From: a virus
Virus record (IMG/VR): IMGVR_UViG_3300005253_000004
Coordinates: 32,001 to 96,000 of that record
DNA: 64,000 nt
Strand: one strand, 5' to 3'
Both the position numbers and the translations under genes were made by a program. Below, one piece after another: positions 40,109 to 56,719 of this stretch (positions are counted from its first letter, which is position 1; the number at the start of each line of letters is the position of its first letter). The notes under the pieces are model-generated. The model worked only from the letters and a program-made list of their open reading frames with translations, was not told where the DNA came from and searched no databases.

Positions 40109-41257
40109 CTATGTTCCACTGTTAGCGAGGTACGAGCCGTACTCAGCATACATTAGTTTGAAGTATTTATTCTTAGCTGCCTTCACCCTGTCCGCCTCAC
40201 TCAATTTACTGAGTGCGATGATGGTTGCCATCTTGGCGATGAGCAACCCGAACTCAGCCTCCAGCTCGGGGCGCAGCACATACTGGAGTGCCTTGCTCCA
40301 CTTATTCCAGTTCTCCTCGATGTTGATGTGATGCTCAAGTGCAGAGATCGTAGCGTACAACACATCAACCTCTGTCTTGGGCGGGATCGGAGCGTTCGCC
40401 GGGTCCTTGCAGATAACCTCGGGAGCGATCAGCTTGGTCGTGTTGTTGGCGAAGGCAGAGAACGCAATCCCGACACCCGAACCGATGCAACCAACGGCTG
40501 TCTTGTAGAGCCACTCACCTGCGACACCACCCTTCGGATCCATCTTGTACATGGCCTTGCTCATCATCTCCCAAGTCCTCGGCGTAGCAAAGGCTTTCTC
40601 TGCTGCTGCGAGCTTGACCACCTCGGCAAAGGTGTTCAGACATTGAGGCATTCTCCGAATGAAGGCAGTAATCAGGGGGTTGATATGGTTATCAATCGCC
40701 CACTCCAACCACGAGTCTACGTCTGTCTTGGCGTAGTAATGCTTCATCCGATTAGCTAGAGCCATCGGCATCTCAAATGCCGCTGACTTGTCCTCGACCC
40801 TGTTCCCCGCAGCTATGATATAGACGTTATCACGGAGCTGAAGGTTCCCTACTTTCTTCTCACCGAACACCTTGAAGCAGGCAGCCTGTGTCTGCTCATG
40901 CCCTGTCACGATGTCATCAAAGAAGATAACCATCTTCTTCTTCTGCCATTCGGGAGGTGCCTCGGTGCTGGCATGGTACGCCCAGATGGGAGCGAGGATC
41001 CGAGTAGCCACAGCCTCACCCTTGTGCTTGTACTCAAACGGCACACCACTGATATCGGTGGGCTCCGAGCATCCAGCGAGAACCAGCACGATCTCATGCG
41101 GATCCTCTTTCCTTGAGAACACAGCCTTGGTTGCCTCGGTCTTGCCAATACCGGGAGGACCCCAGATCATAGTGGCAAACTCAGGCCCTAGCCTGTACAC
41201 GATGTCAAGGATCTCACTCACATTCTGCTGGCAGATTTCCTGTCCTGCTGTTCCCAT
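40109..41257 (-). CDS. MoxR-like AAA+ ATPase (partner of VWA protein)
   Basis: WGPPGIGKT, IFFDD, IIAAGNR, ALANR, TPRTW. Confidence 0.9.
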   Translation of the reverse strand: MGTAGQEICQQNVSEILDIVYRLGPEFATMIWGPPGIGKTEATKAVFSRKEDPHEIVLVLAGCSEPTDISGVPFEYKHKGEAVATRILAPIWAYHASTEAPPEWQKKKMVIFFDDIVTGHEQTQAACFKVFGEKKVGNLQLRDNVYIIAAGNRVEDKSAAFEMPMALANRMKHYYAKTDVDSWLEWAIDNHINPLITAFIRRMPQCLNTFAEVVKLAAAEKAFATPRTWEMMSKAMYKMDPKGGVAGEWLYKTAVGCIGSGVGIAFSAFANNTTKLIAPEVICKDPANAPIPPKTEVDVLYATISALEHHINIEENWNKWSKALQYVLRPELEAEFGLLIAKMATIIALSKLSEADRVKAAKNKYFKLMYAEYGSYLANSGT

Positions 41258-42995: not shown

Positions 42996-43222
42996 TGTCC
43001 CTTCTCTCTGTTCTTCTTGATTAGTTTGTTGGCGTAGTCTTGAAACCACTCAGCCCATTCTTCATCCTCGACCCAAGTATGGTCCTCTTCACGTTGGGCA
43101 ACGTGGAGGCAGAACATATTGAATACTGAGTCCACTTCAGGCTCAGACTCAAGGCAAAACTCCAACAAATCCAACACCTTACGCCGGTGCTTGTCCATCA
43201 AGGGCTTGCGTGTGATACTCAT
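42992..43222 (-). CDS. hypothetical protein
   Basis: 76 aa, coupled. Confidence 0.6.
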   Translation of the reverse strand: MSITRKPLMDKHRRKVLDLLEFCLESEPEVDSVFNMFCLHVAQREEDHTWVEDEEWAEWFQDYANKLIKKNREKGQ

Positions 43223-43313
43223 AGCACTGTACTACACAGCGCACCTGCTATAGCGATGAACGCCAACTCCCCGAGGAGTATGATCCAACCACTCGCTCGC
43301 TGTAGTCTACTCA

Positions 43314-43538
43314 TCACACATCCCCTCTGAATGATGCTGACTTTTCCCACTCAACAGCCACCTCAACGATGGACCCTGCATCAATACCACCAGCAAGACG
43401 CTGCGCTTCCTTGCAATGCCCATGCCCGCTGAAGATGAGCTTCTTTAGTTGCTGTTCATTGGTACGCTTGCCCCGCTCAGCTTGTCGTGCCTCTGCTGCT
43501 GTGCGTCGTGCCTCCTTAGCAACTCTACCTTTTCTCAT
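43314..43538 (-). CDS. hypothetical protein
   Basis: 74 aa, basic. Confidence 0.6.
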   Translation of the reverse strand: MRKGRVAKEARRTAAEARQAERGKRTNEQQLKKLIFSGHGHCKEAQRLAGGIDAGSIVEVAVEWEKSASFRGDV

Positions 43539-43722
43539 CGTCCTCGTCCTTTCTTGTCTCTACGCTGTGAAGTATCTCTTTCTGTAGGCTATCGGGCTGT
43601 GTCACCTTGCGTACCCGGCGTAGCCCTGCCTCATCGGGGCGTCCGATCTTGCGTGCTATCTGCTCGTCAGTCATCCCTTTCAGTGCCATCTTCTTGATCC
43701 GCTCGTCGGTTTGATTGAACAT
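43525..43722 (-). CDS. small helix-turn-helix protein
   Basis: IKKMALKGMTDEQIARKIGR. Confidence 0.7.
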   Translation of the reverse strand: MFNQTDERIKKMALKGMTDEQIARKIGRPDEAGLRRVRKVTQPDSLQKEILHSVETRKDEDDEKR

Positions 43723-44041
43723 CTTTCTCCTCCGCAACCCGCATCGCCTGTGTCAGCTCAAGTTCGACCTCTTTCATGGTAGCATGGAAAGCTTCGGTTG
43801 CTTCCTTGATCCTCTGCTCTTGGTCATTGGTGAGCTTCACGCTGACTTTATTGGTGCTTTTGTTTTTGAGGGCTTTGCGTGCCTTGTACACCCACCACAT
43901 AACACACGCAGCCATTGCGATAGCCCAGCCTGTGCTTGGGTCCTCGTCGCTCAACTGCAAGACCATAGCCAGTAGGCACCACACCGCTGCGAACAGCGCA
44001 CCTTGGAATGTTTCGAACCATGTAAAAAACCTGTGAAACAT
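43667..44041 (-). CDS. two-TM membrane protein
   Basis: Two hydrophobic helices then coiled coil. Confidence 0.65.
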   Translation of the reverse strand: MFHRFFTWFETFQGALFAAVWCLLAMVLQLSDEDPSTGWAIAMAACVMWWVYKARKALKNKSTNKVSVKLTNDQEQRIKEATEAFHATMKEVELELTQAMRVAEEKDVQSNRRADQEDGTERDD

Positions 44042-44045
44042 TACG

Positions 44046-44216
44046 TCACTCCTCTTTGTCTGTCAAAGCAAGCACGTCTGTCACGTACCTAAGGCACGAT
44101 GGGTGGTGATCGTTGATACAACCAACATCATCGCATCCGTTTACTCTGCTCTTGAAGCACGCTATTACACCCAAGAGACAGGTTCGTATCGCTTTGTACT
44201 TCTCTTTGTCTGTCAT
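44046..44216 (-). CDS. small hypothetical protein
   Basis: Start re-called at MTDKEKY. Confidence 0.5.
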   Translation of the reverse strand: MTDKEKYKAIRTCLLGVIACFKSRVNGCDDVGCINDHHPSCLRYVTDVLALTDKEE

Positions 44217-44319
44217 ATACTTATGCCGCCTGTGATTCGGGTGAACATTGATGTGATCTGCTCTGCGTAATGGACATGAGCAAGCCACCCTAGTACTACT
44301 CCGACGATCAGTCTTAGCA

Positions 44320-44730
44320 TTACTTATCTCCTTCCTCTTTGAATGTGAACGAGTAGCTCTTGCCATCGACAATGCACAGTGCTTCCTTTTCCTTCTTCTT
44401 CTGCTCCTTTAGGTGCTTGGCGAGGCTCTTGTCGTATGCCTTCTTGTTCTTGCTGGTCCACTCAACGAGGTAGTCCACCACATCGAGTGCCGAGTGGCAG
44501 CACGCATTACAGACATGGTGTCTTTCCAGATTCCACTGGTTGTTTGGGTGCGTCCACGAGCAGTACCTAGTGGGTCCGACCTCCCACTGAGCCATGAAGT
44601 ATGTCTCGTCACGCAACCAATCTTGGCACCGCTCACACTGGACCCAGTATTTCTCTTTCTCCTTCCACTCCGACTGGTTGATCTCTTTGATCTCGGCCGC
44701 TTGGTGATGCCGTGTGTCTAGTCTCATCAC
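44320..44730 (-). CDS. zinc-binding hypothetical protein
   Basis: CERC..CNAC. Confidence 0.65.
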   Translation of the reverse strand: MMRLDTRHHQAAEIKEINQSEWKEKEKYWVQCERCQDWLRDETYFMAQWEVGPTRYCSWTHPNNQWNLERHHVCNACCHSALDVVDYLVEWTSKNKKAYDKSLAKHLKEQKKKEKEALCIVDGKSYSFTFKEEGDK

Positions 44731-44961
44731 TTCTCCTCATTGGACAACGAGCCATCGCTCTTGCTCATGTAACAGTCACCGATGGCCTTCATCGGTGCGT
44801 AACACCACGCGCATGGTTGGTTGTTCTTCACGCATTGTGCCTCATGGTGGCATTCAGTGCAATGTATTGTCATACTACCTCCGTGCTGTGACGGTAAAGA
44901 ACAACCAAGATACCAAAACAATTCCTACAAAATGATACCACTCCATAGCGTACTCCAGTGA

Positions 44962-45030
44962 CTATGATGCTTCATGCAGCATAGACCAATGGCTACAAGG
45001 CCCGGAGACCCCGTGCCATTGAGCTATGCT
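44962..45030 (-). ncRNA. intercistronic structured RNA element A, copy 1
   Basis: AGCATAG-CT-CAATGGC..GCCATTG-GT-CTATGCT plus alternative CTATG..CATAG hairpin. Confidence 0.7.
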
Positions 45031-45031
45031 A

Positions 45032-45418
45032 CTAGCTGGCCTTGAAAGTACCGGCCTTGTTCTTCGTGCCCATCACCACAAAGCTCGGAACGTGCTCAGA
45101 CTGGATACTCCAAGCACCTTCGCTCTTTGAGAAACGAGCCTTGCCTCGGCCAGATGCACCGAAGCGGATCTTCTTGATCTCTTTCAGCACGGCCTCGGCC
45201 TCCGGGTTACCCCGAGGTGAACCGAGCGGCATGTCATTGGAGTCCACGAACTCCATGAATACGTACTCCGTGCCGTACTCGTCGCTGTTCTTGTCGTTCC
45301 GGTACCCGATGACTCGTCCGAAACTCCCTTTGGACTTCGGGCTTTCGCTCTTCTTGATGAAGGCTTCGAGGCGAGCGAGTTCCGCTTTCTGCTGCTTGAG
45401 TGTCATCTTCTTGGGCAT
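45032..45418 (-). CDS. early protein, paralog of 51305 and 51882 (HARP/DUF5710-like GxARW..WS motif)
   Basis: KKIRFGASGRGKARFSKSEGAWSI shared with two paralogs. Confidence 0.75.
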   Translation of the reverse strand: MPKKMTLKQQKAELARLEAFIKKSESPKSKGSFGRVIGYRNDKNSDEYGTEYVFMEFVDSNDMPLGSPRGNPEAEAVLKEIKKIRFGASGRGKARFSKSEGAWSIQSEHVPSFVVMGTKNKAGTFKAS

Positions 45419-45430
45419 TTGGATCTCCTA

Positions 45431-45541
45431 TTGAGGGCCTCTAGTGTGGCACTATGCCTCACTAGCTAACCCTCAGCGTGCTGGTCCCATTGACCAACAC
45501 ATCCATTGAGGCACACCACCTCAATGAATCTGCCGGTCGAT
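45431..45541 (-). promoter_or_regulatory. structured 5' leader with two long hairpins
   Basis: TCGACCGGCAGATTCATTGAGG/CCTCAATGGATGTGTTGGTCAA and TGAGGG..CTAGTG/CACTAG..CCCTCA stems. Confidence 0.6.
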
Positions 45542-45549
45542 CTGCCTAC

Positions 45550-45578
45550 ATTTTGACATAACTTGAGCAGGTTGTCAA
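45550..45578 (-). promoter_or_regulatory. sigma-70 promoter TTGACA-N17-CAAAAT
   Basis: Perfect -35, 17-bp spacer, TG-extended -10, directly before the structured leader. Confidence 0.65.
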
Positions 45579-45719
45579 CTCACCTCCTTAGCATTACAGT
45601 CAGTGCAAGTGTGCTTCCTCCCTGTCCAATGATAGTAGCAGCCAACGGAACAGATAAAATCATACCTTCTGACCGGATAGAATACCCACGGATACTGAAG
45701 GACCTTCATAAACGACACC

Positions 45720-45950
45720 TCAGCCAGTATCATACGCACCCTTCCTTCGTACCACGTTGTGCATCGTCACACCAGACACCTTGTAATGGGTGGCTAGGGC
45801 CTTGAGTGTAGTACCCTCGACGAAGAACTCCTTGCGGCACCGAGCCACCTGTGAGGGTGTCAGCTTCTTTCCCTTGTCTTTGGAACTCATGTTCTTGTTC
45901 AGACCAAGCAAGTGCATGGCTTCTCCTATTTCGATGGGCTTGTGTCTCAT
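45720..45950 (-). CDS. helix-turn-helix protein
   Basis: KLTPSQVARCR..TLKALATHYKVSGVTMHNVVRRK. Confidence 0.7.
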   Translation of the reverse strand: MRHKPIEIGEAMHLLGLNKNMSSKDKGKKLTPSQVARCRKEFFVEGTTLKALATHYKVSGVTMHNVVRRKGAYDTG

Positions 45951-46286
45951 TTCAGCTCCTTCAGTCGTCGTTCATGTTACGGCCACAGAATATACGCAGC
46001 CACCAAGGCTTGCGAAGCTTCTTGAACACCGCTCTACCACAAGCGCAGTGCCAATCTACCCAGTGCCAATCTACCCACCACCCAGGCCACCGCTCTCTCA
46101 AGGATCTGACTATTCTCTCCGCCGGTTCAGCAGTTAGATAATCATAGAACAGTACCTCTCCAGCCATGTAAACGGAGTTCTTACAAGGTTTGTACTTTTG
46201 TGCCTTGTCATAATCATGCGCTGCACACAAGCACTCGACGTTGCAGCTTACATCCTCCGATAGATTGTGTCTCATTTCAGCTCCTT
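45940..46286. repeat. 22-bp perfect direct repeat (45940-45961, 46265-46286) covering RBS and first codons
   Basis: TTGTGTCTCATTTCAGCTCCTT twice. Confidence 0.9.
45961..46275 (-). CDS. hypothetical protein
   Basis: MRHNLS..; 15-bp internal duplication (WVDWH x2) at 46046-46075. Confidence 0.6.
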   Translation of the reverse strand: MRHNLSEDVSCNVECLCAAHDYDKAQKYKPCKNSVYMAGEVLFYDYLTAEPAERIVRSLRERWPGWWVDWHWVDWHCACGRAVFKKLRKPWWLRIFCGRNMNDD

Positions 46287-46409
46287 TCTTACAGTACACT
46301 GAGTAGCAAGCAGGCTAGCACACCTAGTAATGCGGCGCGTAGCCGTAGTATTGTATCTCGGTTCTTGAATCTTTCTCCTATGACCTCAAGCAACTGTTCA
46401 TCGCTCATT

Positions 46410-46598
46410 TTAGCTCCTTTTACACACTCTGGAGAAGCATAGCTTAGCAGACGAGGACAGTCCTCGTTGCGTAGAGTCAGTGCAGACCTTGCCTCTCTCA
46501 TAGGTGATGATGTTGCCTAATCTTTGGTTCTCTTCGATGTCGAGGCAGCAGCCTGAAATCCAAGGCAGCAGCAGCAGTACAACGATCAGGTATCTCAC
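46410..46598 (-). CDS. small lipoprotein-like protein
   Basis: GTG start; MRYLIVVLLLLPWISGC lipobox-like. Confidence 0.55.
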   Translation of the reverse strand: MRYLIVVLLLLPWISGCCLDIEENQRLGNIITYERGKVCTDSTQRGLSSSAKLCFSRVCKRS

Positions 46599-46894
46599 TA
46601 TGTCTCCTCGTTCTCGCAACGGTTGCCATACCAAACCAACTCTTGCATTCCTATTACTTGGTCGGGTGCTGACTCTCCGCACACCTGACAAGACCAGCCC
46701 TCCTTGAAATCGTAGTTGCAGTAGGCATACACAGAGTCTACTGAGTTGGCTTCGGTACATCTTGCATCATTAATGTGCTTGTGTCTAGCACCAGCATTCC
46801 ATTGGCGTCCCATGTGCCGATACCTATGGATCACCCAGTTATCTTCCAAATCTAGGTAGGTATCCTCTATAAAGCTTTTGAAGTGCCTGCTCAC
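46598..46894 (-). CDS. Zn-finger family member
   Basis: EDNWVI..RHKH..CQVCGESAPDQVIGM. Confidence 0.8.
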   Translation of the reverse strand: MSRHFKSFIEDTYLDLEDNWVIHRYRHMGRQWNAGARHKHINDARCTEANSVDSVYAYCNYDFKEGWSCQVCGESAPDQVIGMQELVWYGNRCENEET

Positions 46895-47061
46895 TGTATC
46901 TCCAAATCATTCCAATGAAAGTTCGGATGACATGCCAAGATACCAGCACGGTACGCCAACACTATGGCATCATCCATGTCACACTCCAAAGCAGCTAGAT
47001 TCTGTTTTGCTACCTCTGCCTTGAGTTGTTTGATCTTTGCTGCCAGTGTGTCGTTGTCCAT
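46891..47061 (-). CDS. small hypothetical protein
   Basis: Start re-called at MDNDTL. Confidence 0.55.
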   Translation of the reverse strand: MDNDTLAAKIKQLKAEVAKQNLAALECDMDDAIVLAYRAGILACHPNFHWNDLEIQ

Positions 47062-47062
47062 G

Positions 47063-47311
47063 TTACTTCTCCCATGCACACAGGTTGATGAGCCCTTTGA
47101 AATGCTCGGGTATCTCAGCCATGCATACACTACATTGGACTTCACGCTTCAAAGCAGCCCCGTAGCACAGCGTGTCACAGTGGTGTAGATAATACCATGC
47201 TTCGTTGGATGGTGGATACTTTGTATCTCGGGTATACTTTATTATACCCCAACCATCAACCAATGGTGTCTTAGTAAAAACTAAGCCGGTTACGACAAGA
47301 CCATGAGTCAT
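47063..47311 (-). CDS. Zn-finger family member
   Basis: DGWGI..YLHHC..CSVCMAEIPEHFKGL. Confidence 0.8.
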   Translation of the reverse strand: MTHGLVVTGLVFTKTPLVDGWGIIKYTRDTKYPPSNEAWYYLHHCDTLCYGAALKREVQCSVCMAEIPEHFKGLINLCAWEK

Positions 47312-47493
47312 TCAGTCACCTCGATCTTAGCTACACGGTGCCAGAACACAGCACCGTACCTTTGCTTAGCCCCTTCGGCTAGCCACACATGGGCTTGGCC
47401 CTCGTTCTTGAACCCCGACTCGATGATGACCTGAGTACAAGTCACCTCGCCGGTAACATCCTTGTCCTCCAGAGTGAAGATTACTTTAGCCAT
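47308..47493 (-). CDS. small hypothetical protein
   Basis: MAKVIFTL; coupled. Confidence 0.55.
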   Translation of the reverse strand: MAKVIFTLEDKDVTGEVTCTQVIIESGFKNEGQAHVWLAEGAKQRYGAVFWHRVAKIEVTE

Positions 47494-47758
47494 CACTGAC
47501 CCCTTTGGCACCTGCCATGAGCAGCACCATCAAGCCTTGTATCTCATCAGGCACGGGCTCTTCGCAGTAGTAACAAACACACGGATCGTCGGAGGTGAAC
47601 CATGCGTAGCTTCCAGGTCGAACAGTTGTGTTTTTGGATAGCTTACGTACCTTACTGTAAACTTTGAGGTCACACTTATGGTTTGCATAGTACTCAAACA
47701 GGTGCTCTTCTTCGTTATTTATGATGTTCCAATTACCTAGAGTAAACAAGGCCATCAC
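47486..47758 (-). CDS. Zn-finger family member
   Basis: LGNWNI..ANHKC..CYYCEEPVPDEIQGL. Confidence 0.8.
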   Translation of the reverse strand: MMALFTLGNWNIINNEEEHLFEYYANHKCDLKVYSKVRKLSKNTTVRPGSYAWFTSDDPCVCYYCEEPVPDEIQGLMVLLMAGAKGVSDG

Positions 47759-48001
47759 CTGTCTCCTACCCCCTGTTGAGGTACTCGGCCATAGCTAAGG
47801 CACCTACCTCATCGTCCCATTTGTCATACACCACCAAGCCACCCGTTGTATCATCTTGAAGCACAACAAGGTACTTGTTGGCTCCCGTTGCCACCTTGAC
47901 CGTCAACACGTAGTACTCCATGTTACCTCCTTTGTTGACCTGTATTCTACGAAATTGGCCCGTCTAGTACGAATACAGTGGCCTGTCGTACAGGCATGTC
48001 A

Positions 48002-48352
48002 TCAAACTTCTCCATGCTGTTCAATCACAGTGTTGATAACCAACAAGTCACCCTCAGCACGGAGCTTGCTACCCTCAGCATAGAGCTTTTCACCCTCAGC
48101 ACGGAGCTTGCTACCCTCAGCATGGAGGTTTTCACCCTCAGCATAGAGCTTGCTCCCCTCAGCATGGAGGTTTTCACCCTCAGCATAGAGCTTGCTCCCC
48201 TCAGCATGGAGGTTTTCACCCTCAGCATAGAGCTTGCTCCCCTCAGCACGGAGCTTGCTACCCTCAGCATAGAGCTTGCTCCCCTCAGCATAGAGCTTGC
48301 TCCCCTCAGCACGGAGGTTTTCACGTCGTTTCTTTGCTTCTTTGATTGTCAT
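48002..48352 (-). CDS. heptad-repeat protein (xxLxAEG x13)
   Basis: AGGAG RBS; 13 heptads. Confidence 0.75.
   Translation of the reverse strand: MTIKEAKKRRENLRAEGSKLYAEGSKLYAEGSKLRAEGSKLYAEGENLHAEGSKLYAEGENLHAEGSKLYAEGENLHAEGSKLRAEGEKLYAEGSKLRAEGDLLVINTVIEQHGEV
48050..48322. repeat. 21-bp tandem repeat array, about 13 units
   Basis: CCCTCAGCAxxGAG units; variants SKLY/SKLR/ENLH. Confidence 0.95.
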
Positions 48353-48786
48353 GTTATCTCCTATGTTGTACTACAGCAGCTCGCAAGGGAACACCCCTTA
48401 CGGCAGAGTGCTACGGTACTCTGAGATGTCGAACGACATCGCAAGGTAGAAAAACCCAGCGACCACAGCTATGAACACCGCCATCGCAACCCTCACTACC
48501 ACCTACCTCTGACCAGCCCTCGGGACAGGCTGTAGTTCGGATGCACCAGTGTCGGGCTCTTGTCGTTCTCCAAGTACAACCAGATACCCTTGCTACCCTT
48601 GGGACCTCTGGTTGCCAGTCTCAGGGCCTTCTTGAACCACATCGCTTCGATTTGTTTCATGTTACCTCCGTCTTATCCATGAGTCTCTTCAGACTCTTGA
48701 GTTTGCGTATTGCTACCTCTATGCAAGCCCACAGTATAGCAGCAGCACCAACAAATACACCAAGACTAAAACAAAACCAGTCCATG

Positions 48787-49068
48787 TCAGCTCTGTACTA
48801 CATGCTTACAATGGCAGCAACCCTCGGCCTTCACCTCGGATGCCGCTGGGTCGCGCAGGAACTTAGCCCTGGGGCGTTCTATCACGGTGACGTAGTAGGA
48901 CATTGATCCTTTGCTTCCAATACCAGGATCACCAGGATCACCAGAGTCCTCACGTTCCCTCATGTTCTTGACCATGCGGTTCCGGCACTTGTCGGCCGCT
49001 TGGTAGTTATCGAACGGTCCGAGTATGTTGACTCCGGTCCACGTTTGACTTACAATTACATGCTTCAT
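48787..49068 (-). CDS. hypothetical protein
   Basis: AGGAG RBS; GPF...A motif. Confidence 0.65.
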   Translation of the reverse strand: MKHVIVSQTWTGVNILGPFDNYQAADKCRNRMVKNMREREDSGDPGDPGIGSKGSMSYYVTVIERPRAKFLRDPAASEVKAEGCCHCKHVVQS

Positions 49069-49083
49069 TGTGTACTCCTGTGG

Positions 49084-49138
49084 CTATGATGCCTCATGCA
49101 CCATAGACCAATGGCCGAAGCCATTGAGCTAGGGTGCA
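49084..49138 (-). ncRNA. intercistronic structured RNA element A, copy 2
   Basis: TGCACC-CTAG-CT-CAATGGC-TTCG-GCCATTG-GT-CTAT-GGTGCA, with a cUUCGg tetraloop. Confidence 0.75.
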
Positions 49139-49140
49139 AC

Positions 49141-49398
49141 TCAGCTCCTATATATTGAGTCCAACGTCACGTTCACCACCATTTCAATTTTCTCTGCCTT
49201 CTCAGGTGTTACCCCCAAGAGCCCTTCAAACTCCGTGAAACCATAGCCTATGCCTGTCCTGAACGATACCTCTTCATTGAACACGATGCCCAACGCAGAC
49301 CCGTCGCTCTTCAGCGTCATCATAGCCATATCCAGACCGTCAAGCCACCAGCCATCTGGTAGGCTAGGCTTACAGGTACGACGTACTCCTTGCTTCAT
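49141..49398 (-). CDS. hypothetical protein
   Basis: AGGAGG RBS. Confidence 0.6.
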   Translation of the reverse strand: MKQGVRRTCKPSLPDGWWLDGLDMAMMTLKSDGSALGIVFNEEVSFRTGIGYGFTEFEGLLGVTPEKAEKIEMVVNVTLDSIYRS

Positions 49399-49416
49399 TG
49401 GAGCCTCCTTGCTAGT

Positions 49417-49470
49417 CTCCTGTCAAAGGAAAGGTAGAAAACTGACCGTAAAAGCCCACTATGAGCCCAA
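49417..49470 (-). promoter_or_regulatory. intergenic element B copy 1 (others at 49865, 50520, 51108)
   Basis: TACGGTCAGTTTTCTACCTTTCCTTTGACAGGAG; similar sequence precedes four RBSs. Confidence 0.65.
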
Positions 49471-49471
49471 G

Positions 49472-49678
49472 TCAGCTACCTTCCCTGATGATACGCTTGT
49501 TCTCAGCGTCCCACTTGGCAACAGCCGTCTCAGCCTCGTCGAGCGCGTGCTTCACCAATGTGTGTAGCTCTGTGGGTAGTAGAGTCCAAGGATCCTCAGA
49601 TACCACCCATTCAGGGTCACAGAACAGCTTTGACTCAGCCTTCATCACTACCAGCTTAAACCTCTGCTTGGCGGGCAT
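49472..49678 (-). CDS. hypothetical protein
   Basis: GAGGAGG RBS. Confidence 0.6.
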   Translation of the reverse strand: MPAKQRFKLVVMKAESKLFCDPEWVVSEDPWTLLPTELHTLVKHALDEAETAVAKWDAENKRIIREGS

Positions 49679-49908
49679 GGTACCTCCTCAGGTCCTCATA
49701 GAGCCTCACCAAACGTGCCTTCGACGCTATCAGCGCCGCGATCTCAACCTTCAAGGCTTTGATATCCTTATCCAACATGGTACCTCCTATGCTTCGTCCA
49801 CGCCCAGATCTCGGTTATGCCACCCACAACCACAATCAGTGCTAGTACCATCAATCAATCAATCCTCCTGTCAAAGAAAACGTAACAAACTAACCGTAAC
49901 AACCCCTA

Positions 49909-50091
49909 CTAGACCCACCCCCTCAATACCCTAAGCTGGGACAAGCACACTTCTCTGTTCCTATAGGCCAGAGCTAACTGCTGCTCTCTCACCCCAGCGA
50001 TGCACAGTCGAACGTCCTGCCAGTAATCAATGCCTCTGCTGAACCACTTTACACCCATCAGAAGCTCTCGGATCAGGCTGTCGTGCATCAT
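49909..50091 (-). CDS. hypothetical protein
   Basis: AAGGAGG RBS. Confidence 0.55.
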   Translation of the reverse strand: MMHDSLIRELLMGVKWFSRGIDYWQDVRLCIAGVREQQLALAYRNREVCLSQLRVLRGWV

Positions 50092-50129
50092 GGTGCCTCC
50101 TTATCACCTCCCTGAGTCATTGAGCTATG

Positions 50130-50513
50130 TTATAGGAGACCCTTCAACTGTTCCATCAGGAACAATCTCGGAGCGAGGATGATCTTTGCCACGGTGAACA
50201 GACAGACAAGGAACCCAGCAAGCGTAGCCCCACCACCGAAGAGCCCCAGCATGAAGGCAAAGCACGGATCTTCGCCGTTCTTTGATGTATCGAGGATGCG
50301 CCACAGCTTCACAGTTGCGTACATCACACCACCAAACGCCAAGCCCCAGAACACACTCCAGACTCCGTTGTAGAACAAACTGTAGGTCAGGATCTCTTGG
50401 ACCAGCAGCGGAGCCTGCTCCACTACGAAGCTCTCCGTTGATTCCACATACTCCATGACCTTGGCGATGGCCTCGCCGCCTTGTACCAGCAGTTTCTCAG
50501 TGACCTCGTTCAT
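50130..50513 (-). CDS. two-TM membrane protein
   Basis: EQAPLLVQEIL..TM..TM..KIILAPRLFL. Confidence 0.75.
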   Translation of the reverse strand: MNEVTEKLLVQGGEAIAKVMEYVESTESFVVEQAPLLVQEILTYSLFYNGVWSVFWGLAFGGVMYATVKLWRILDTSKNGEDPCFAFMLGLFGGGATLAGFLVCLFTVAKIILAPRLFLMEQLKGLL

Positions 50514-50582
50514 TTTGTACTCCTATGGCAAAGAAAACCAAAATTACATTAAAAACCCCTAGTACCCACTAAGAGCCCAATG

Positions 50583-50792
50583 CTACTTCTCGACGAAGAT
50601 CTGGCCCCGACTGTCAACCAGAAGCCCCGTCACTGTCTCATTGACCCCTGCGACAAGGCGTACTACGTTGCTGTTGTTCGTGAATGCCAGCACAAGGTAC
50701 CCATTGACAATCACATTCACACCTAGAGCCGTGTTCTCCAGCTCCACCTTACCCAGAGGCTCTGCTACCTCTTCCTTCGTTACGAATCTCAT
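50583..50792 (-). CDS. hypothetical protein
   Basis: AGGAG RBS. Confidence 0.65.
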   Translation of the reverse strand: MRFVTKEEVAEPLGKVELENTALGVNVIVNGYLVLAFTNNSNVVRLVAGVNETVTGLLVDSRGQIFVEK

Positions 50793-50807
50793 AATACTCT
50801 CCTGTGG

Positions 50808-50938
50808 CTATGATACCTCATGCATCATAGACCAAGAACACAGAGCCAAAGCAAGCATACTCGGAGTCACTCAAGCAACAACGCTCCACTTGAGGCTAGC
50901 CTTTCGCCCTTCGACCCTGCGCCCTTGGTCTATGCTGC
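50808..50938 (-). ncRNA. structured RNA element A, copy 3 (30-bp stem with G-U pairs and inner domain)
   Basis: GCAGCATAGACCAAGGGCGCAGGGTCGAAG pairs with CTTTGGCTCTGTGTTCTTGGTCTATGATGC; 6 of 7 deviations are G-U wobbles. Confidence 0.8.
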
Positions 50939-51154
50939 TCAGATCAATTGTCGAGCTTCTCCTCTGTGCCGTGCTCCATGTATAGCTTATACGCTTGGTT
51001 ATGGACCAAATGGAACGCCCATAAGCCAGCCAAAGGCCCAGGTAACACCGCTGATAACGACTACATTGATGAAAGACACCGGATTTCCGAACTCGTACAT
51101 GTTCAATCTCCTATGGCAAAGGAAAAGCAGAAAACTGACCGTAAATACCCCTAC

Positions 51155-51212
51155 AACATAGACCAAAGGCTACAGAGCCTCTAGTACCGCCTCTGCGCCC
51201 TTGAGCTATGTT
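51155..51212 (-). ncRNA. structured RNA element A, copy 4
   Basis: AACATAG-CT-CAAGGGC-GCAGAG..CTCTGT-A-GCCTTTG-GT-CTATGTT. Confidence 0.7.
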
Positions 51213-51304
51213 ACTTCGGGGGTCAGCCTAACCTCCCATGAGGTATTCTAGCCCTCTGATGGCTGTGTAGACTATGACTCCGAGGCATATGATCTCGAAG
51301 AGAC

Positions 51305-51598
51305 TCAAGACCCGAACACGGTGCCCTTGAGAGCCGATGCCTTGATGCTCCAGAGGCTATCCTCGCGGCACCAACGCGCTTTGCCCCGTGACGAAGCGCC
51401 GTAGCGGATCGCCTTGAGCTGCTTACGCAGCTTCAGGTCGTCCTTGGGGATGCTGACGAACACGTACCGCTCACCGTAGGCCTCGGTGTTCTTTGCGTTC
51501 TCAGTGATAACGATGCCATTGTCCTTGCCAGCAGCGGCTATGACGGCATTGAGCTTCTTCAGCTCTTTGTGTGCTGCCTTCAGTTCGGTCTTGGTCAT
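51305..51598 (-). CDS. early protein, paralog of 45032 and 51882
   Basis: MTKTELK..KAIRYGASSRGKARWCREDSLWSI. Confidence 0.75.
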   Translation of the reverse strand: MTKTELKAAHKELKKLNAVIAAAGKDNGIVITENAKNTEAYGERYVFVSIPKDDLKLRKQLKAIRYGASSRGKARWCREDSLWSIKASALKGTVFGS

Positions 51599-51831
51599 TA
51601 TGTCTCCTTTTTAGTGAACCCCAAGTTGATCTCTCTGTCCCATCGTTGCTTCGTGAGCCTACGATGTTGTCGCTCTGCTACCGCGACCCTGTGCTGTTGA
51701 GCCTCCACCGCAGCTTTCAGAGTCTCCAGCTTGGTGCTTTGTACCTCGATCCTGGCTTCTTGGCGTCTGAGGTTGTCACACGCTCTGACGTACAAGTCCA
51801 TAGGGCTTTCTCTCTTGGAGAGTTTATACAT
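51598..51831 (-). CDS. coiled-coil hypothetical protein
   Basis: AGGAGG RBS. Confidence 0.65.
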   Translation of the reverse strand: MYKLSKRESPMDLYVRACDNLRRQEARIEVQSTKLETLKAAVEAQQHRVAVAERQHRRLTKQRWDREINLGFTKKET

Positions 51832-51881
51832 TTAGGCCTCCTGTGGCCTTGGACAAGGGGGCGAAAGGTCAATGAATCCGG

Positions 51882-52178
51882 TTACTTGCCGAACACGGTG
51901 CCTTCAAGGGCCGAAGTCAAGACGCTCCAGGCAACTTCGTCCTTGTTCCAGCGGGCCTTACCGTGCGCAAACCGGCCCCAACGCAGCGCCTTGATCTGCT
52001 TACGCAGCTCCGTGGAGGTCTTGGGGATCTTCACGAAGCTATAATCACCGAATTCGGCGTTCTTCGCGTTGACGTAGACCTCGATCTCCGTGTTGCCTTC
52101 GGCAATCTCGTGCTTTGCGATGAAGGCATTGAGTCGTTTGAGGTCAGCCTTAGCCTTGCGCAGTTCTGTCTTGGTCAT
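51882..52178 (-). CDS. first gene of early operon, paralog of 51305 and 45032
   Basis: MTKTELR..GKARWNKDEVAWSV; AGGAG RBS; start re-called. Confidence 0.75.
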   Translation of the reverse strand: MTKTELRKAKADLKRLNAFIAKHEIAEGNTEIEVYVNAKNAEFGDYSFVKIPKTSTELRKQIKALRWGRFAHGKARWNKDEVAWSVLTSALEGTVFGK

Positions 52179-52241
52179 TATGTTCTCCTGTCGGGGTATA
52201 GTGTTACCGTAGCAGCGGACTGCCCGCCGCTCGACAAAACG

Positions 52242-52270
52242 AGTATCGCACGTCAAGTCGAGAAAGTCAA
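52242..52270 (-). promoter_or_regulatory. strong early sigma-70 promoter TTGACT-N17-GATACT
   Basis: Same hexamers as the T7 A1 promoter, 17-bp spacer, TG extension. Confidence 0.75.
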
Positions 52271-52825
52271 ATCCTCAACAAAATCAACTACTTACACGAC
52301 CGACTTGCCGGTTCATACATGGTAAACCCCCCGCTAAGCTGCTGTTAATAACACTTTTTAGTGATACTGTTTAGTACTGATAATACCCTAGACAGGACGT
52401 GGGGTTACAGCAATAGTGCTTCAATGCCGTGGAGTTACAGCCTTGAGTACCTACTACTGTTTCCAAGGGGGGGGTGGGTCTATTGGTGTTGCCATCAGCT
52501 TAATATATCCAACTAGATCGCGGGGTTAGCCCAATCTGTGTAGTTTTAGACCCTTTTTGCTCTTTATGTGCTTTAATTAGACCGGTCATTCGCAAGAATG
52601 CCTTTATTTACGTGTACTTAGCCTTATTCCTTAGTGTATACCCACAAGAACCCAGAGGACAAGAGGTCTAGAGAGCCTAAGTAGTGGTTATAACGTACAC
52701 ATGGGGGTTTATGGTGGTAGTAGGGGTGTTTATGGTAAGTGTTCGTTGTTTCTTACGAATCTCTTGACTTGGTTGAGTCCGGACTCGGGTATCAGACCCC
52801 CGAAAAGGGGCCATTTAGGTGTTAT
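52271..52825. other. about 550-bp non-coding region with short repeats and a G run (candidate genome end or origin)
   Basis: No ORF; CGTGG(G/A)GTTACAGC x2 and related motifs; G run near 52467. Confidence 0.5.
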
Positions 52826-53140
52826 TTAGGGGGCTTTTTGAGCAATTTGCATTATGGCGTACGCATGTTCTGATTCGAGCATCAAATACAAACATTCCAG
52901 CTCCTCCGGAGGCGATCTCAGACAGCGGGAGCAAGCCCAGCAGGGATCGGGGTGTCTTGCTCTCATGGGGAACTCGGCGTTCAAGTACAATACTAGTAGG
53001 TACTCAAGGCCCCCTTTGAGCACCGGTTGGCACAGGTGGTACATGTGGTGTAACCCCGAAACACTCGAAACACTCGATTTCGCTATCACCCAGTCGTTCA
53101 TTTCGAGCTTGATTTTTAGTCTGGAGCCGTCTTTAGTCAT
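52826..53140 (-). CDS. Zn-finger family member (tandem array)
   Basis: NDWVI..MYHLC..CSRCLRSPPEELECL. Confidence 0.8.
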   Translation of the reverse strand: MTKDGSRLKIKLEMNDWVIAKSSVSSVSGLHHMYHLCQPVLKGGLEYLLVLYLNAEFPMRARHPDPCWACSRCLRSPPEELECLYLMLESEHAYAIMQIAQKAP

Positions 53141-53382
53141 GCTCCCTCCTTCAAGAACCAGAACATGGCCTGGATGCCCTCCGGAGGAGCCTCCCTACAT
53201 GCGAAACACGGGATACCCCGGTAGCAAAGACCGTAAACGAACGGATGCCATTCCAAATCGCTTCCGCATTTATGCCTACTGCAGGAACCACGGCATCTAT
53301 GCTCGATGCTGATCGCCCGGATGGAGTTCAAATTGCGCCAGGCAAGCCGGAATGCCCCGATAGTGATTAGAGGCTCAGTCAT
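53137..53382 (-). CDS. Zn-finger family member (tandem array)
   Basis: GAFRL..IEHRC..CFACREAPPEGIQAMF. Confidence 0.85.
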   Translation of the reverse strand: MTEPLITIGAFRLAWRNLNSIRAISIEHRCRGSCSRHKCGSDLEWHPFVYGLCYRGIPCFACREAPPEGIQAMFWFLKEGA

Positions 53383-53653
53383 TTTCCCTCCTAGAGTCCA
53401 TATCTCCGGTCAGCATGACAAACAGCGCCTGAAGACCCTCAGGGACACGGGAGTGACATTGCGTGCAAGGATATTGGAAGTACCGATAGATGTCTCGCCG
53501 AGCTGTCCACCACGAATGTTCACAGTTATGCCACAGATAATACAAGTAAGGGGTTCCTTGCTGGTGTTCTGGCGTTCCTTCTGTTTGCTCGTACAGCCCC
53601 CACCCTGCTTCAAAGGCGATGGGGTCAGGTTGCGGTTTCGGTTCAGTATCCAT
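53375..53653 (-). CDS. Zn-finger family member (tandem array)
   Basis: EAGWGL..LWHNC..CTQCHSRVPEGLQALF. Confidence 0.85.
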   Translation of the reverse strand: MDTEPKPQPDPIAFEAGWGLYEQTEGTPEHQQGTPYLYYLWHNCEHSWWTARRDIYRYFQYPCTQCHSRVPEGLQALFVMLTGDMDSRREND

Positions 53654-53656
53654 AGT

Positions 53657-53878
53657 CTACTCCTCCTTCATGAATAAGAGCATCACTTGGATACTGTCCG
53701 GAGCTCTCTCTTGACAATTCCGACAAGGGCGATGACAAAGGCTAGGGGTTCCGCTAAACCCTTCCCATCGGTCCTTACACCGGTGCTCGATGAACCACCA
53801 GTCATATCCGCCCTTGTACCTGTACCGGGATAATCGGAAGTTTCCATATTCAAAGCGGACCGTTTTGTAGTCAGCCAT
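53657..53878 (-). CDS. Zn-finger family member (tandem array)
   Basis: GNFRL..IEHRC..CRNCQERAPDSIQVML. Confidence 0.85.
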   Translation of the reverse strand: MADYKTVRFEYGNFRLSRYRYKGGYDWWFIEHRCKDRWEGFSGTPSLCHRPCRNCQERAPDSIQVMLLFMKEE

Positions 53879-54110
53879 TGGGCTCTTCCTTCATAATCCA
53901 GAATATCGCTTGAAGGCCGTCTGAGGGACGACTCTTACACCAAGAGCACTTCCACCCCCGCGCCTGGACGCTGAAGATACGTCCGCGCCAGCAACCTTCA
54001 TCGTCGTGGCCTTCTGGCACGGGGCACTTGTGCTCTAGGTACGTGTGCCGCATTATTGTCCCCATGTGCCGGCGGACCAGTCGGTAATCATTGTCAGTTT
54101 TGAGAACCAT
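53871..54110 (-). CDS. Zn-finger family member (tandem array)
   Basis: NDYRL..LEHKC..CSWCKSRPSDGLQAIF; start re-called. Confidence 0.8.
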   Translation of the reverse strand: MVLKTDNDYRLVRRHMGTIMRHTYLEHKCPVPEGHDDEGCWRGRIFSVQARGWKCSWCKSRPSDGLQAIFWIMKEEPNG

Positions 54111-54124
54111 CAAGGTCGCCTCAA

Positions 54125-54550
54125 TCAGTAGGCCCTTCCTAAGGGGAGTAAAACCCCGCCTGACCAAGGCCCAAATGTACCCGGCGGGTCGTCTTCTTCC
54201 ACGCGCCTGCGCAGTTCCAGGACTTCGCTTACCTCCAAGGAGGTGTTGTCCGGCTCCAGCAGGCACCAGACAGCAACGATGCTTGCGGGTGGAACTGCGA
54301 AGCAGTTCTCGCAGTGCCAGTTGGGCTTGATCTTCCGGGTCCCGTTGATAGAGAAGTCAGACCCTATGTCGGCTCGGTACTCACAGAGGTACATATCCCA
54401 TTCAGTCTTTTCGCACTGGTGCCAGAGCCCATGCGTGGTGAACCTGTTATGATACTGGAGGATCCTCCACCGGCCTCGTTTGAGCTTCTCAGCACCGTAC
54501 TCTGTTTCGATGTACTCTGCTTGGGACTTCCATACGCCTTTCAGACTCAT
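54125..54550 (-). CDS. Zn-finger family member (tandem array)
   Basis: RGRWRI..LWHQC..CENCFAVPPASIVAVW; start re-called. Confidence 0.8.
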   Translation of the reverse strand: MSLKGVWKSQAEYIETEYGAEKLKRGRWRILQYHNRFTTHGLWHQCEKTEWDMYLCEYRADIGSDFSINGTRKIKPNWHCENCFAVPPASIVAVWCLLEPDNTSLEVSEVLELRRRVEEDDPPGTFGPWSGGVLLPLGRAY

Positions 54551-54813
54551 GACCCCTCCATCAAGAACCAGAAACACGCCTGAAGCCCTTCGGCGGGGCG
54601 TTCTTTGCATAAGGGGCATTCCGTGCCTCGGTTGCCGGTCGTGTAGATCATCCCACGCCATTGTTCTTCCCATTTAAGGCCAGCAACAGAGCACTTGTGC
54701 TCGATGAGGATTACTGCGGGGAGATACACGGCGCCCATCCCGGTTTGACGGGTGTACTGGCGAATTCGCCATCTGTCGATCTGGAGGTGGACTGTCGATC
54801 CGAGGTCACTCAT
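54547..54813 (-). CDS. Zn-finger family member (tandem array)
   Basis: DRWRI..IEHKC..CPLCKERPAEGLQACF. Confidence 0.85.
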   Translation of the reverse strand: MSDLGSTVHLQIDRWRIRQYTRQTGMGAVYLPAVILIEHKCSVAGLKWEEQWRGMIYTTGNRGTECPLCKERPAEGLQACFWFLMEGS

Positions 54814-55049
54814 GGCTTCATATCCCCTGTCATCAGGACGAACATTGCTTGGATCCCTTCGGGGACTGCTTTATGACACCAACCACAAGGGTGGTGTAGC
54901 CCTCTATACCTATACCGAGTAGCCACTAAGCCAGTGGTGTCTAGACATACGTGATGAAGAAAGTGACTCATTTGCCAGCTAGGGCTCTGGTCTTGTGTGA
55001 CGCAGAGGTCCCAGGTATCCTCAGACCAGATGACGTCTTTGGTCTTCAT
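54810..55049 (-). CDS. Zn-finger family member (tandem array)
   Basis: DTWDL..LHHVC..CGWCHKAVPEGIQAMF. Confidence 0.85.
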   Translation of the reverse strand: MKTKDVIWSEDTWDLCVTQDQSPSWQMSHFLHHVCLDTTGLVATRYRYRGLHHPCGWCHKAVPEGIQAMFVLMTGDMKP

Positions 55050-55429
55050 GGCTTGTACTCCCAGATCTGTCCAGGCTGCCCGATCGGTGTGCCACTACCC
55101 ATGTAGAAGAAACCCCCTGGGACTAGGTAGAGGTAGTTCGAGGAGTAGAAGGGTGAGAGCTCTTCTTGGTACTGGGGTTCTTCTAGGAGGTCGAAGTTCT
55201 TCAGCTTCCATAATCCCATGATCGAGTCCGGGATATCTGCTCCACAATGCATACAGGTCTGCATCGTCTTCATTTCCCAGGTGCTGATCGGCTTGTACTG
55301 GAGCAGAAAGTTCCACTTCCATTTGCACTTGTGATAAACTGTATCGAACATATCCTCGTACCCAGGGATACCCTTGATGATCCAGCCTTGATCCTTAAAT
55401 AGAACTCCTTCGTCACGCAAGCGACTCAT
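55046..55429 (-). CDS. Zn-finger family member (tandem array)
   Basis: DQGWII..VYHKC..CMHCGADIPDSIMGLW. Confidence 0.85.
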   Translation of the reverse strand: MSRLRDEGVLFKDQGWIIKGIPGYEDMFDTVYHKCKWKWNFLLQYKPISTWEMKTMQTCMHCGADIPDSIMGLWKLKNFDLLEEPQYQEELSPFYSSNYLYLVPGGFFYMGSGTPIGQPGQIWEYKP

Positions 55430-56327: not shown

Positions 56328-56339
56328 GGGTTCTTCCCT

Positions 56340-56546: not shown

Positions 56547-56719
56547 TACCCCTCCGTAGGCTCCTTAATTCTGCGTTGGATCTCTCTGCGAATATCAGCC
56601 ACTATATACCCGCTACCCGAGTCGTCGTTGAAATAATCCTCATTGTCGTCTATGTATTCTATAAGTTCCTTCAGCTCGGCTTTGACTGCCATCTCTGCCG
56701 CGTATCTATTAATTCCCAT
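56546..56719 (-). CDS. small hypothetical protein
   Basis: Start re-called at MGINRY (AGGAG). Confidence 0.6.
   Translation of the reverse strand: MGINRYAAEMAVKAELKELIEYIDDNEDYFNDDSGSGYIVADIRREIQRRIKEPTEG

Follow-up and report, generated by a model that had tools for sequence, protein, structure and literature searches.

A repeated, strand-specific RNA hairpin between early genes of uncultured marine-sediment phages, with a putative role in transcript processing

Introduction

What is the role of a hairpin that recurs between the early genes of a phage? The question is raised by a 64,000-nt stretch of DNA, here called the window, that covers bases 32001-96000 of the 119,470-bp virus record IMGVR_UViG_3300005253_000004. 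A first-pass annotation, made from the sequence alone, had noted in it four copies and one 5' half of a structured inter-cistronic RNA element with alternative pairings, which we call element A. The phage and its host are uncultured, and the phage DNA comes from marine sediment. All coordinates below are those of the window unless another sequence is named.

The polycistronic RNAs of phage T7 are described as being cut by host RNase III at specific sites or hairpins (PMC6938266), and for the T7 R1.1 substrate cleavage of a single bond is given, with products of 47 and 13 nt (PMC4858673). Bacillus subtilis RNase III sites in the early mRNA of phage SP82 are cited in PMC4838370. The PeSLs of T4-type phages are presented as a sigma-70 promoter combined with a terminator stem-loop, located between non-essential early open reading frames (ORFs) (PMC2839356, PMC4122927). 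A literature search for prior descriptions of element A returned this T7, SP82 and PeSL work only; such a search cannot show that nothing is in print.

This work demonstrates that element A is a real, strand-specific and covariation-supported RNA hairpin family outside Rfam. It is best explained as a portable leader cassette of early cistrons that acts as sense-strand RNA. By analogy with the systems above, we tentatively favour the view that the cassette may be a processing and stability signal for a host RNase III-type enzyme, with a refolding step built in, and that it may also serve as a recombination joint; we regard this reading as quite possible rather than probable, and weigh the alternatives to it where the evidence is given.

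Copies of element A in the window

All four copies and the half copy are present on the minus strand where the first-pass annotation had placed them, its numbers marking the low-coordinate end of each copy. Copy w1 (45028-44980) forms a first hairpin (hairpin 1) at 44976-45032, minus strand, in which CAUAG (45028-45024) pairs with CUAUG (44984-44980) and further pairs are added outside, giving 24 pairs of which 5 are G-U and a fold of -45.6 kcal/mol. The shortest form, w2 (49133-49102; hairpin at 49097-49138, minus strand), has 15 pairs and a UUCG tetraloop placed directly on the conserved 8-pair box described below; its foot reads CCUAG and its outer stem UGCAC/GUGCA. Copy w3 (50934-50826; hairpin at 50822-50938, minus strand) is long: 81 nt separate its arms, about 30 pairs make up a stem with a branched top, and 11 of the 44 pairs of the whole fold (-61.9 kcal/mol) are G-U; in the comparison of strands it reaches -55.0 kcal/mol on the sense strand versus -29.9 kcal/mol on the complement. 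Copy w4 (51210-51157; hairpin at 51153-51214, minus strand; -49 kcal/mol) carries a second repeated motif, element B, in place of the second hairpin discussed below. The half copy (50116-50129, minus strand) consists of the 5' arm only (CAUAGCUCAAUGAC), and its fold is not above chance (z = -1.10). The UUCG loop and the G-U-rich stem of about 30 pairs had both been recognized in the first-pass annotation; its range of 4 to about 60 nt for the loop inserts has to be widened, the arm spacings measuring 4, 21, 26 and 81 nt.

A 14-mer arm pattern with at most one mismatch occurs eight times versus 1.10 expected (0 of 100 shuffles reach eight), and a 17-mer motif downstream of w1, w2 and w3 occurs three times versus 0.04 expected. 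A covariance model built from 11 copies (R1) was run over the 119,470-bp genome and returned exactly w1 to w4 and nothing else, all confined to 76.9-83.2 kb of the genome. It scores the sense strand at 76.0 (w4), 72.4 (w1), 49.2 (w3) and 43.5 bits (w2), and the opposite strand at 26.1, 29.0, 28.0 and 27.3 bits, respectively. Fold z-scores of w1 to w4 are -3.97, -2.28, -3.80 and -3.57 on the minus strand and -1.31, -2.42, -1.07 and -1.27 on the plus strand.

The suggestion that this might be an unlisted RNA motif holds against Rfam, which gives no match at gathering score over the 64-kb window. Within 44850-52900, two chance-level matches to miRNA models were the only Rfam matches (E about 0.5), and no tRNA-like match appeared up to an E value of 5. 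Neither in the window nor in the whole genome does ARAGORN detect a tRNA or tmRNA.

Relatives and search range

Relatives were sought in IMG/VR with a neighbouring ATPase as bait, which yielded a complete sister genome of 119,599 bp (G001), with 97% identity in the protein, and a 16.6-kb fragment (G002). The sister genome has four copies (ga, gb, gc and gd), and the fragment has none by R1. In the same collection, neither the exact gapped arm pattern (no virus contig beyond those known) nor a neighbouring protein family used as bait (G001 only) added a genome. The gapped arm pattern matched five stretches among metagenome contigs, three of which are related (L133, L135 and L136). The other two (L134 and L137) are identical in sequence and fit the pattern; they look like an A/T-flanked terminator, score 26.5 bits and were dropped as a chance match. 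R1 additionally recovered a copy that the pattern does not require (L136:2161-2261, 59.8 bits) as well as diverged hairpins in L135.

Wider searches gave no further relatives. Among one genome each of 185,579 species, the gapped pattern found a single chance-level match, in a Clostridia metagenome-assembled genome, where the hairpin is not formed and which gives no clue to the host. The bare 14-mer arm matched at least 118 stretches in IMG/VR, and the loci inspected have no partner arm, so these were discarded as chance or tRNA-like matches; a 16-mer from the L135-type feet matched 18 stretches in IMG/VR, none of them related. As far as these collections show, element A appears to be restricted to a small clade of uncultured marine-sediment phages.

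Structure, covariation and strand

Twelve copies from the window, G001, L133, L135 and L136 were aligned. From 5' to 3', element A starts with the 5' foot X (GUANCAUAG), followed by a C-U mismatch (replaced by an A-U pair in w3) and an 8-pair box (UCAANGGC / GCCNUUGG). Inward of the box come a bulged base on the 3' side, a 6-pair inner stem and a free-form top, after which the return strand ends in X' (CUAUGNUGC). The element measures about 85 nt. The foot reads CAUAG / CUAUG in 10-12 of the 12 copies and the box opens with a U-G pair in 11, while the top is no more than a UUCG loop in w2 and reaches about 80 nt, with branches of its own, in w3, gb and L136b. The stem has 19-44 pairs in 11 copies, which is about two helical turns.

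The aligned positions pair in 96.4% of 221 cells versus 20-55% in slid registers. Changes on both sides occur at five of the 19 pairs: the middle box pair is U-A, A-U, G-U or G-C, the last box pair is C-G in ten copies and A-U in L136b, and two pairs of the inner stem are G-C in some copies and A-U in others. With a covariation score of 0.239, the alignment exceeds its shuffled versions (0.121 +/- 0.017), none of 500 of which reaches that value. Covariation among homologs, which the first-pass annotation had proposed as the check, is thus found across the 12 copies. Its co-varying outer pairs hold in part: the three pairs next outward form in 10, 12 and 11 of the 12 copies, the pair adjacent to the foot in only six.

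The sense strand carries the selected fold, as had been proposed for the minus-strand RNA. It is more stable than its complement in all 12 copies, G-U pairs number 43 versus 7, and model scores across the copies run from 43 to 84 bits for the sense strand versus 21 to 40 bits for the opposite strand.

The near-invariance of paired positions, with the top free to vary from 4 to 81 nt, is what one would expect of a binding site on the RNA for a sequence-specific phage or host protein, which would recognize the CAUAG:CUAUG foot, the C-U mismatch and the 8-pair box and could work as a translational repressor, in antitermination or as a dedicated endonuclease. The tandem 8-nt CAUAG/CUAUG units of L135 (see below) resemble a repeated recognition unit, and genes of a small basic paralog family lie upstream of two of the four copies in each full genome. 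The link to these paralogs is weak, however (the gene before the L135 copy gives an E value of 0.041 and a probability of 1.3% in a profile comparison), no RNA-binding or nuclease family was found in ten small neighbouring proteins, and gene conversion among the copies could equally give the conservation. We consider such a protein site rather improbable.

A second hairpin at a fixed distance from the start codon

In nine of the 12 copies, X' (CUAUGNUGC) is followed by a loop of 4-6 nt and then by GYAUCAUAG, a near-repeat of the 5' foot, so that a second hairpin (hp2) of nine pairs reuses the CUAUG of hairpin 1. The alternative pairing with G[C/U]AUCAUAG reported at first pass is found in w1, w2 and w3 and kept in the relatives. 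In w1, hp2 lies at 44962-44984 (minus strand) and consists of CUAUGCUGC, a 5-nt loop and GCAUCAUAG, the CUAUG being common with hairpin 1; the Shine-Dalgarno sequence UGGAG and the start codon (44946-44944) follow. In w2, hp2 (49084-49106, minus strand) is part of the minimum-energy fold and the start codon is at 49068; in w3, hp2 (50808-50830, minus strand) forms nine of nine pairs and the start codon is at 50792. Across the copies, hp2 ends 3-5 nt upstream of the ribosome binding site.

In the hp2 alignment of nine copies, 88.9% of 99 cells are paired. Apart from a single double change, the changes are one-sided and wobble-compatible (U-A to U-G, G-C to G-U), and hp2 is best regarded as conserved and plausible, not as proven by covariation. 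The two G before CUAUG can also pair with the CC or UC after CAUAG (six and seven of the nine copies). With the 5' arm deleted in silico, what is left of the RNA adopts hp2 in all nine copies, at -10 to -18 kcal/mol.

The spacing to the start codon is nearly fixed. Counted from CUAUG, it is 33 nt in w1, w2, w3, ga and gc, 30 nt in gd and L136b (the latter read by eye), 32 nt in L133 and 29 nt in L135. The distance from the upstream stop codon to the foot varies from 0 to 94 nt, with a whole tRNA gene in between in gd. Since the gap to the start codon is fixed at 29-33 nt in nine of nine copies and the gap to the stop codon is variable, element A belongs to the leader of the downstream gene. 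The proposed adjacency to stop codons therefore stands for some copies only. The foot of w1 is 3 nt past the stop of a 128-aa gene (45418-45032). Element w2 begins 2-3 nt past the stop codon 49143-49141 with its foot 7 nt past it, and the half copy directly follows the stop codon (50132-50130) of a 127-aa gene. The distances are 64 nt for w3 and 94 nt for w4, the latter measured from the stop of a 97-aa gene (51598-51305), and the tie is to the downstream start codon.

The homologous genes after w3 and ga share 48% identity (E 3e-18), those after w2 and gc 30% (E 4e-13) with no DNA similarity by BLASTN; the elements before the w2 and gc genes are still alignable over the arms and hp2. The elements have stayed more similar than the coding DNA, through either selection or gene conversion.

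These features could also describe a cis-acting toggle that is never cut: a bistable X/X'/X leader in which X' shifts to the downstream X with no endonuclease needed. A ribosome finishing the upstream gene, or a helicase, would open the 5' foot and change access to the ribosome site, resulting in translational coupling, standby control or a simple exonuclease block. The energies suit this idea in half of the cases. Figures could be used for eight copies, in which the energy gap between the closed and hp2 states runs from -1.7 to +7.2 kcal/mol. In w1, w3, ga and L135 the closed form is the more stable by 2.4-7.2 kcal/mol; in gc, gd, L133 and L136b the two forms lie within 1.7 kcal/mol of each other and are near-equal (difference -1.7 to 0.0). 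For w2 the forced-pair energy was left out, a non-standard pair being enforced, and its two forms differ by 0.3 kcal/mol in direct folding. The variable base N of X' fits the downstream X in eight of nine copies and the upstream X in four, the distance to the start codon is fixed, and a stop codon precedes the foot by 0-12 nt in w1, w2, the half copy, L133 and L135. Yet the stop is 64-94 nt away in w3, w4 and ga, a tRNA gene intervenes in gd, and three copies have no hp2. Moreover, the Shine-Dalgarno sequence is covered by at most about two pairs in either state, which leaves no clear on/off logic. An uncut toggle is therefore unlikely in our view, if a serious contender.

Two further ideas about hp2 were dropped. 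A model with three states, one of them having the start codon masked by the downstream CAUAG, fits w1 only. A promoter at hp2 would have a TATCAT-like hexamer with no usable -35 at the right spacing, and the promoter scan does not flag hp2; 15 promoter-like sites were found in 43000-59500, none of them inside any copy of element A or hp2.

A possible processing and stability signal

In the reading that we tentatively favour, the long hairpin would be the signal for a host double-strand-specific RNase III in a polycistronic early transcript. If the enzyme cut the 3' strand close to the mismatch, the upstream RNA would retain the upper hairpin as a protective 3' terminus, and X' (CUAUGNUGC) would be free to pair with the downstream X. 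The downstream mRNA would then begin with hp2, its ribosome binding site 3-5 nt further on, and hp2 might stabilize this message and leave the site open. Hairpins at the 5' terminus protect bacterial mRNAs, and processing by RNase III can switch on translation of a T7 gene. The proposed role of RNase III is drawn from stem length, inter-cistronic position and the analogy with T7 and SP82; with at least 19 pairs in 11 of the 12 copies and a conserved internal mismatch, hairpin 1 would suit this enzyme as a substrate. A search for an RNase III or double-stranded RNA-binding domain found none in the genome of the window or in G001, RNase III being present in eight of 14 control genomes, so that the host enzyme would have to act.

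Several points weigh against this reading. The stem of w2 has just 15-18 pairs. RNase III is not known to need as much sequence conservation as the near-invariant 8-pair box shows, which hints at a sequence-specific partner. The five foot pairs are invariant and provide zero covariation information. Nine of the 12 aligned copies were found by, or define, the pattern that fixes the arms, so the apparent arm conservation is inflated and independent information lies in the variable positions and in w2, w3 and L136b. About five genomes or contigs are known, some of them mutually close, and counts are therefore not independent events. Covariation in hp2 is not above that of shuffled alignments (175 of 500 shuffles), and hp2 is not obligatory, being absent in three of the 12 copies (w4, gb and L136a), which have element B instead. 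No RNA run is listed as containing the stretch. Finally, T7 is reported to grow without RNase III (PMC6938266), and such sites can thus be dispensable.

Element B and other leader motifs

Element B consists of GGUACUAGGGGUAUUUACNGUNAGUUU, a U-rich run and CUUUG[A/C]CAUAGGAG, and ends at the ribosome binding site. The copy joined to w4 (51104-51152, minus strand) is a U-rich leader that ends in CCUUUGCCAUAGGAG and is followed by the start codon at 51100. Copies without element A lie at about 50575-50517, 49925-49860 and 49480-49412 (minus strand), and others occur in G001 and L136; each is preceded either by element A or by a small hairpin. The first-pass annotation had missed that element A comes in these two forms, with hp2 or with element B.

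In shape, element B resembles a terminator, but it contains neither a clear promoter nor a canonical terminator. Strong hairpins between genes, a U-rich element B after the hairpin in w4, gb and L136a, and a terminator-like site flagged inside w4 could all be taken to mean that the copies are transcription terminators or attenuators. There is no U-run after w1, w2 and w3, however, where hp2 and a ribosome binding site follow at once, and the flagged site, the only one that the scan returned at a copy, is an inner stem fragment of w4 and not the whole hairpin. We rate this as very improbable.

A third leader motif, AAGGCCACA[G/A]GAGG, is also repeated (51850-51837 in the window; about 40455-40475 and 41085-41105 in G001). 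In G001 it is preceded by a small GGAGAGCG..CUCUCC hairpin, and its CCACAGGAG part is also found after hp2 in w2, w3 and ga.

Contig L135 is related more distantly, having just two short BLASTN matches to the window's genome, and has one canonical copy. It contains four very stable inter-cistronic hairpins (937-1160, 1373-1483, 2762-2882 and 4261-4345; z = -5.5 to -8.2) whose feet are built from two to four tandem 8-nt units, each contributing CAUAG to the 5' strand and CUAUG to the 3' strand. Slippage of the register by 8 nt would be possible in these feet. The CAUAG:CUAUG duplex seems to be the core of the family and the 8-pair box a trait of one branch.

Gene modules at the copies

Comparison of the sequences with G001 and L136 shows the early region as a mosaic in which synteny breaks at the copies of element A, a property that had escaped the first-pass annotation. 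In the window, the 97-aa gene is followed by w4 with element B, a 33-aa ORF, w3 with hp2 and a gene X; in G001, the homolog of the 97-aa gene is followed by ga with hp2 and gene X. Copy ga is a composite: it opens with the flank that lies upstream of w3 and ends in GCAGCATAG, goes on with a second CATAG and a body like that of w4, and closes with the part found downstream in w3, which leaves it with two tandem CATAG. The gene before w2 (49398-49141) is followed by element B in G001 and directly by the homolog of 48660-48496 in L136, where w2 and the two genes behind it are missing. Copies w1 and gd both follow homologous 128-aa genes and precede different genes. In G001, a tRNA-His gene (GUG) with an encoded CCA end (L126:1925-2000) lies between the 128-aa gene and gd, exactly at the foot, flanked by CATAG and GATAG and ending 6 nt before gd; no tRNA gene is present at the corresponding place in the window. 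The homolog of the 127-aa gene in L133 (38% identity, E 7e-20) is followed by a full element A with hp2, and the half copy at 50129 is therefore the relic of a full copy, which had likewise been overlooked. The comparison shows the copies, and the CATAG foot in particular, as joints of gain, loss and swap of modules between related phages.

The copies might then be primarily DNA-level features, a recombination joint or selfish repeat such as a PeSL-like or folded single-strand site, with a secondary role as RNA. The synteny breaks, the composite ga, the tRNA gene at the gd foot and the half copy as a relic all fit this view, and both genomes encode an Xer-like tyrosine recombinase. This protein of 264 aa is located next to an HNH-like protein (108194-108679 in the window's genome, 13001-13474 in G001), outside the window and about 25 kb from the copies, and is unexpected for the lytic-type gene content; it may act in dimer resolution, integration or otherwise. 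With the integron-integrase model it scores 60 bits versus a cut-off of 265, which makes it generic Xer-like. The compensatory changes and the asymmetry of 43 versus 7 G-U pairs speak against the DNA as the main level, indicating selection on the folded sense strand, as does the fixed spacing to the start codon, which points to a leader function. Deletion or circle joints, indels or variants at the copies were absent from the contigs of three DNA runs, which is weak evidence, contigs hiding rare variants. All in all, a mainly DNA-level role appears marginally less probable than the protein site considered above.

An intermediate scenario joins both levels: the early region would be a cassette array in which element A is a folded single-strand joint with exchange at the CATAG foot and doubles as a bistable X/X'/X switch. 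Each portable unit would comprise hairpin 1, hp2, a ribosome binding site and an ORFan gene, and the switch would decide what becomes of the mRNA of its cassette. Help could come from the Xer-like recombinase or from a nuclease that reads the foot, amounting to integron-like shuffling of early genes in a lytic-type phage. We regard this as a decidedly long shot.

The true tRNA-His gene next to gd and a phage-encoded RtcB RNA ligase (see below) could also hint at a tRNA-derived or tRNA-like element handled by tRNA-processing enzymes. The 5' arm UAGCUCAAUGG (45028-45015, and other copies) resembles the D-arm region found in many tRNAs, and a tRNA-like fold has no support from any tool. The negative ARAGORN and Rfam results given above stand against such an origin, and element A is a single long hairpin with no cloverleaf; of all the readings considered, this is the one in which we place least belief. 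The scans together show that element A is not a sigma-70 promoter, an intrinsic terminator, a tRNA or a known RNA family.

Genome and transcription unit

The record has a G+C content of 50.8% and an exact end repeat of 121 bp, and a block of minus-strand genes extends from about 29 to 90 kb of the genome. Large proteins encoded in the window comprise a family-A DNA polymerase, a DnaB-like helicase, an SbcC-like nuclease, an RtcB-type RNA ligase (26058-27311) and a sigma factor; the genome encodes this ligase though it lacks any tRNA gene. The DNA polymerase has at most 25-29% identity to GenBank phages, with SPO1-like Bacillus phages among the best of these remote matches. Megablast against GenBank phages detects no close DNA relative, and the 127-aa protein beside the half copy has no match among them. 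T7 early mRNA had been cited for comparison at first pass; this phage is not T7-like, it has its own sigma factor and sigma-70-like promoters were found. A single-subunit RNA polymerase was not seen among the ten largest window proteins scanned, no genome search having been aimed at one.

All copies of element A are intergenic, co-oriented and located downstream of a sigma-70-like promoter candidate (52242-52270, minus strand; TTGACT, 17 nt, TG-GATACT). As a consensus match, 52270-52242 is the likely start of a transcription unit containing all of them, and we infer that they share one continuous polycistronic transcript. Ahead of this site lies a non-coding stretch of about 650 nt (52830-52185, minus strand), 77% kept in G001 and 90% in L136 and with no match in Rfam, which may be an origin, a regulatory region or an RNA of a new type.

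Other features of the region were observed alongside. At least eight small paralogous ORFs of 79-127 aa (57700-52850 and 47755-47486, minus strand) share a C-terminal motif consisting of CxxC, a few residues and P[ED]G[IL]QA[ML]F, and look like a zinc-ribbon-like early gene family that arose by tandem expansion. The gene at 48352-48002 (minus strand) consists of tandem repeats of a short peptide unit (..EGSKLYAEG..). The stretch is contained in three DNA runs of a single marine-sediment study; the contigs of all three break at this gene and the depth rises there, and the repeat number may be variable or collapsed. In each of the three runs, one contig matches the window from 47055 upward and is unlike it below; a strain that carries another module may thus co-occur, the boundary being intergenic and free of element A.

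Discussion

Among known systems, element A is likened most to the processing signals of T7 and SP82 in its supposed function and to the PeSL cassettes of T4-type phages in its evolutionary behaviour. Like the T7 R-sites (e.g. R1.1), it is a set of repeated, related hairpins between cistrons, presumably those of one long phage transcript, with a stem of about two turns broken by a conserved internal mismatch. In both, a single cut by a host enzyme would leave a hairpin on the upstream 3' end, to the extent that the T7 sites are described in PMC6938266 and PMC4858673. In contrast to those sites, element A shows no sequence likeness to them and has no Rfam match, its top varies from 4 to 81 nt, its cleavage is putative, and its 3' foot has a built-in second partner at a fixed distance from the start codon; the phage itself is unrelated to T7 and relies on host polymerase with a sigma factor of its own. 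SP82 is similar in setting, being a large phage with conserved hairpins in its early mRNA that is transcribed by host polymerase and phage sigma factors, and SPO1-like Bacillus phages are among the best, if remote (25-29% identity), matches of the window's DNA polymerase. That likeness is one of description and not of sequence comparison.

Like PeSLs, as these are described, the copies are small repeated regulatory cassettes between early ORFs to which insertions, deletions and replacements among close relatives map. Element A is not a PeSL, however: it has no promoter-like site or U-run, it shows covariation at the RNA level and it is fused to a ribosome binding site.

Two other repeat classes share part of its features. 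Integron attC sites are folded single strands in which an unpaired spacer separates a conserved paired foot from a second conserved box, with an extra-helical base and a top of very variable length. Element A has these parts and likewise lies between small co-oriented ORFs that come and go, but the core and inverse-core motifs are absent from its foot, no integron integrase is present, and it precedes an ORF at a fixed distance from the start codon, whereas attC follows an ORF. REP and BIME sequences of bacterial chromosomes are extragenic imperfect palindromes that follow stop codons; they can influence translation and shield the mRNA upstream of them. The imperfect palindrome after a stop codon is shared; the differences are that no Y1 (RAYT) transposase was found (PF01797 has no match in the phage genomes), that the search of 185,579 species genomes gave one chance-level match and that element A has only four copies, all in one operon.

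Element A adds an unlisted, covariation-supported RNA motif from a phage lineage without cultured relative (polymerase at most about 29% identical to those of GenBank phages). At about 85 nt, it is short enough for direct in vitro and reporter testing. It would go one step past the classical T7 sites through the second partner that is built in for its 3' foot, with constant spacing to the start codon: a single cut or opening would turn an inter-cistronic hairpin into the 5'-terminal hairpin of the next message. The repeats also mark swaps of ORFan modules and, in one case, of a tRNA gene. In these phages, RNA punctuation may thus be linked with genome plasticity, a link that PeSLs, as described for T4-type phages, make by other means.

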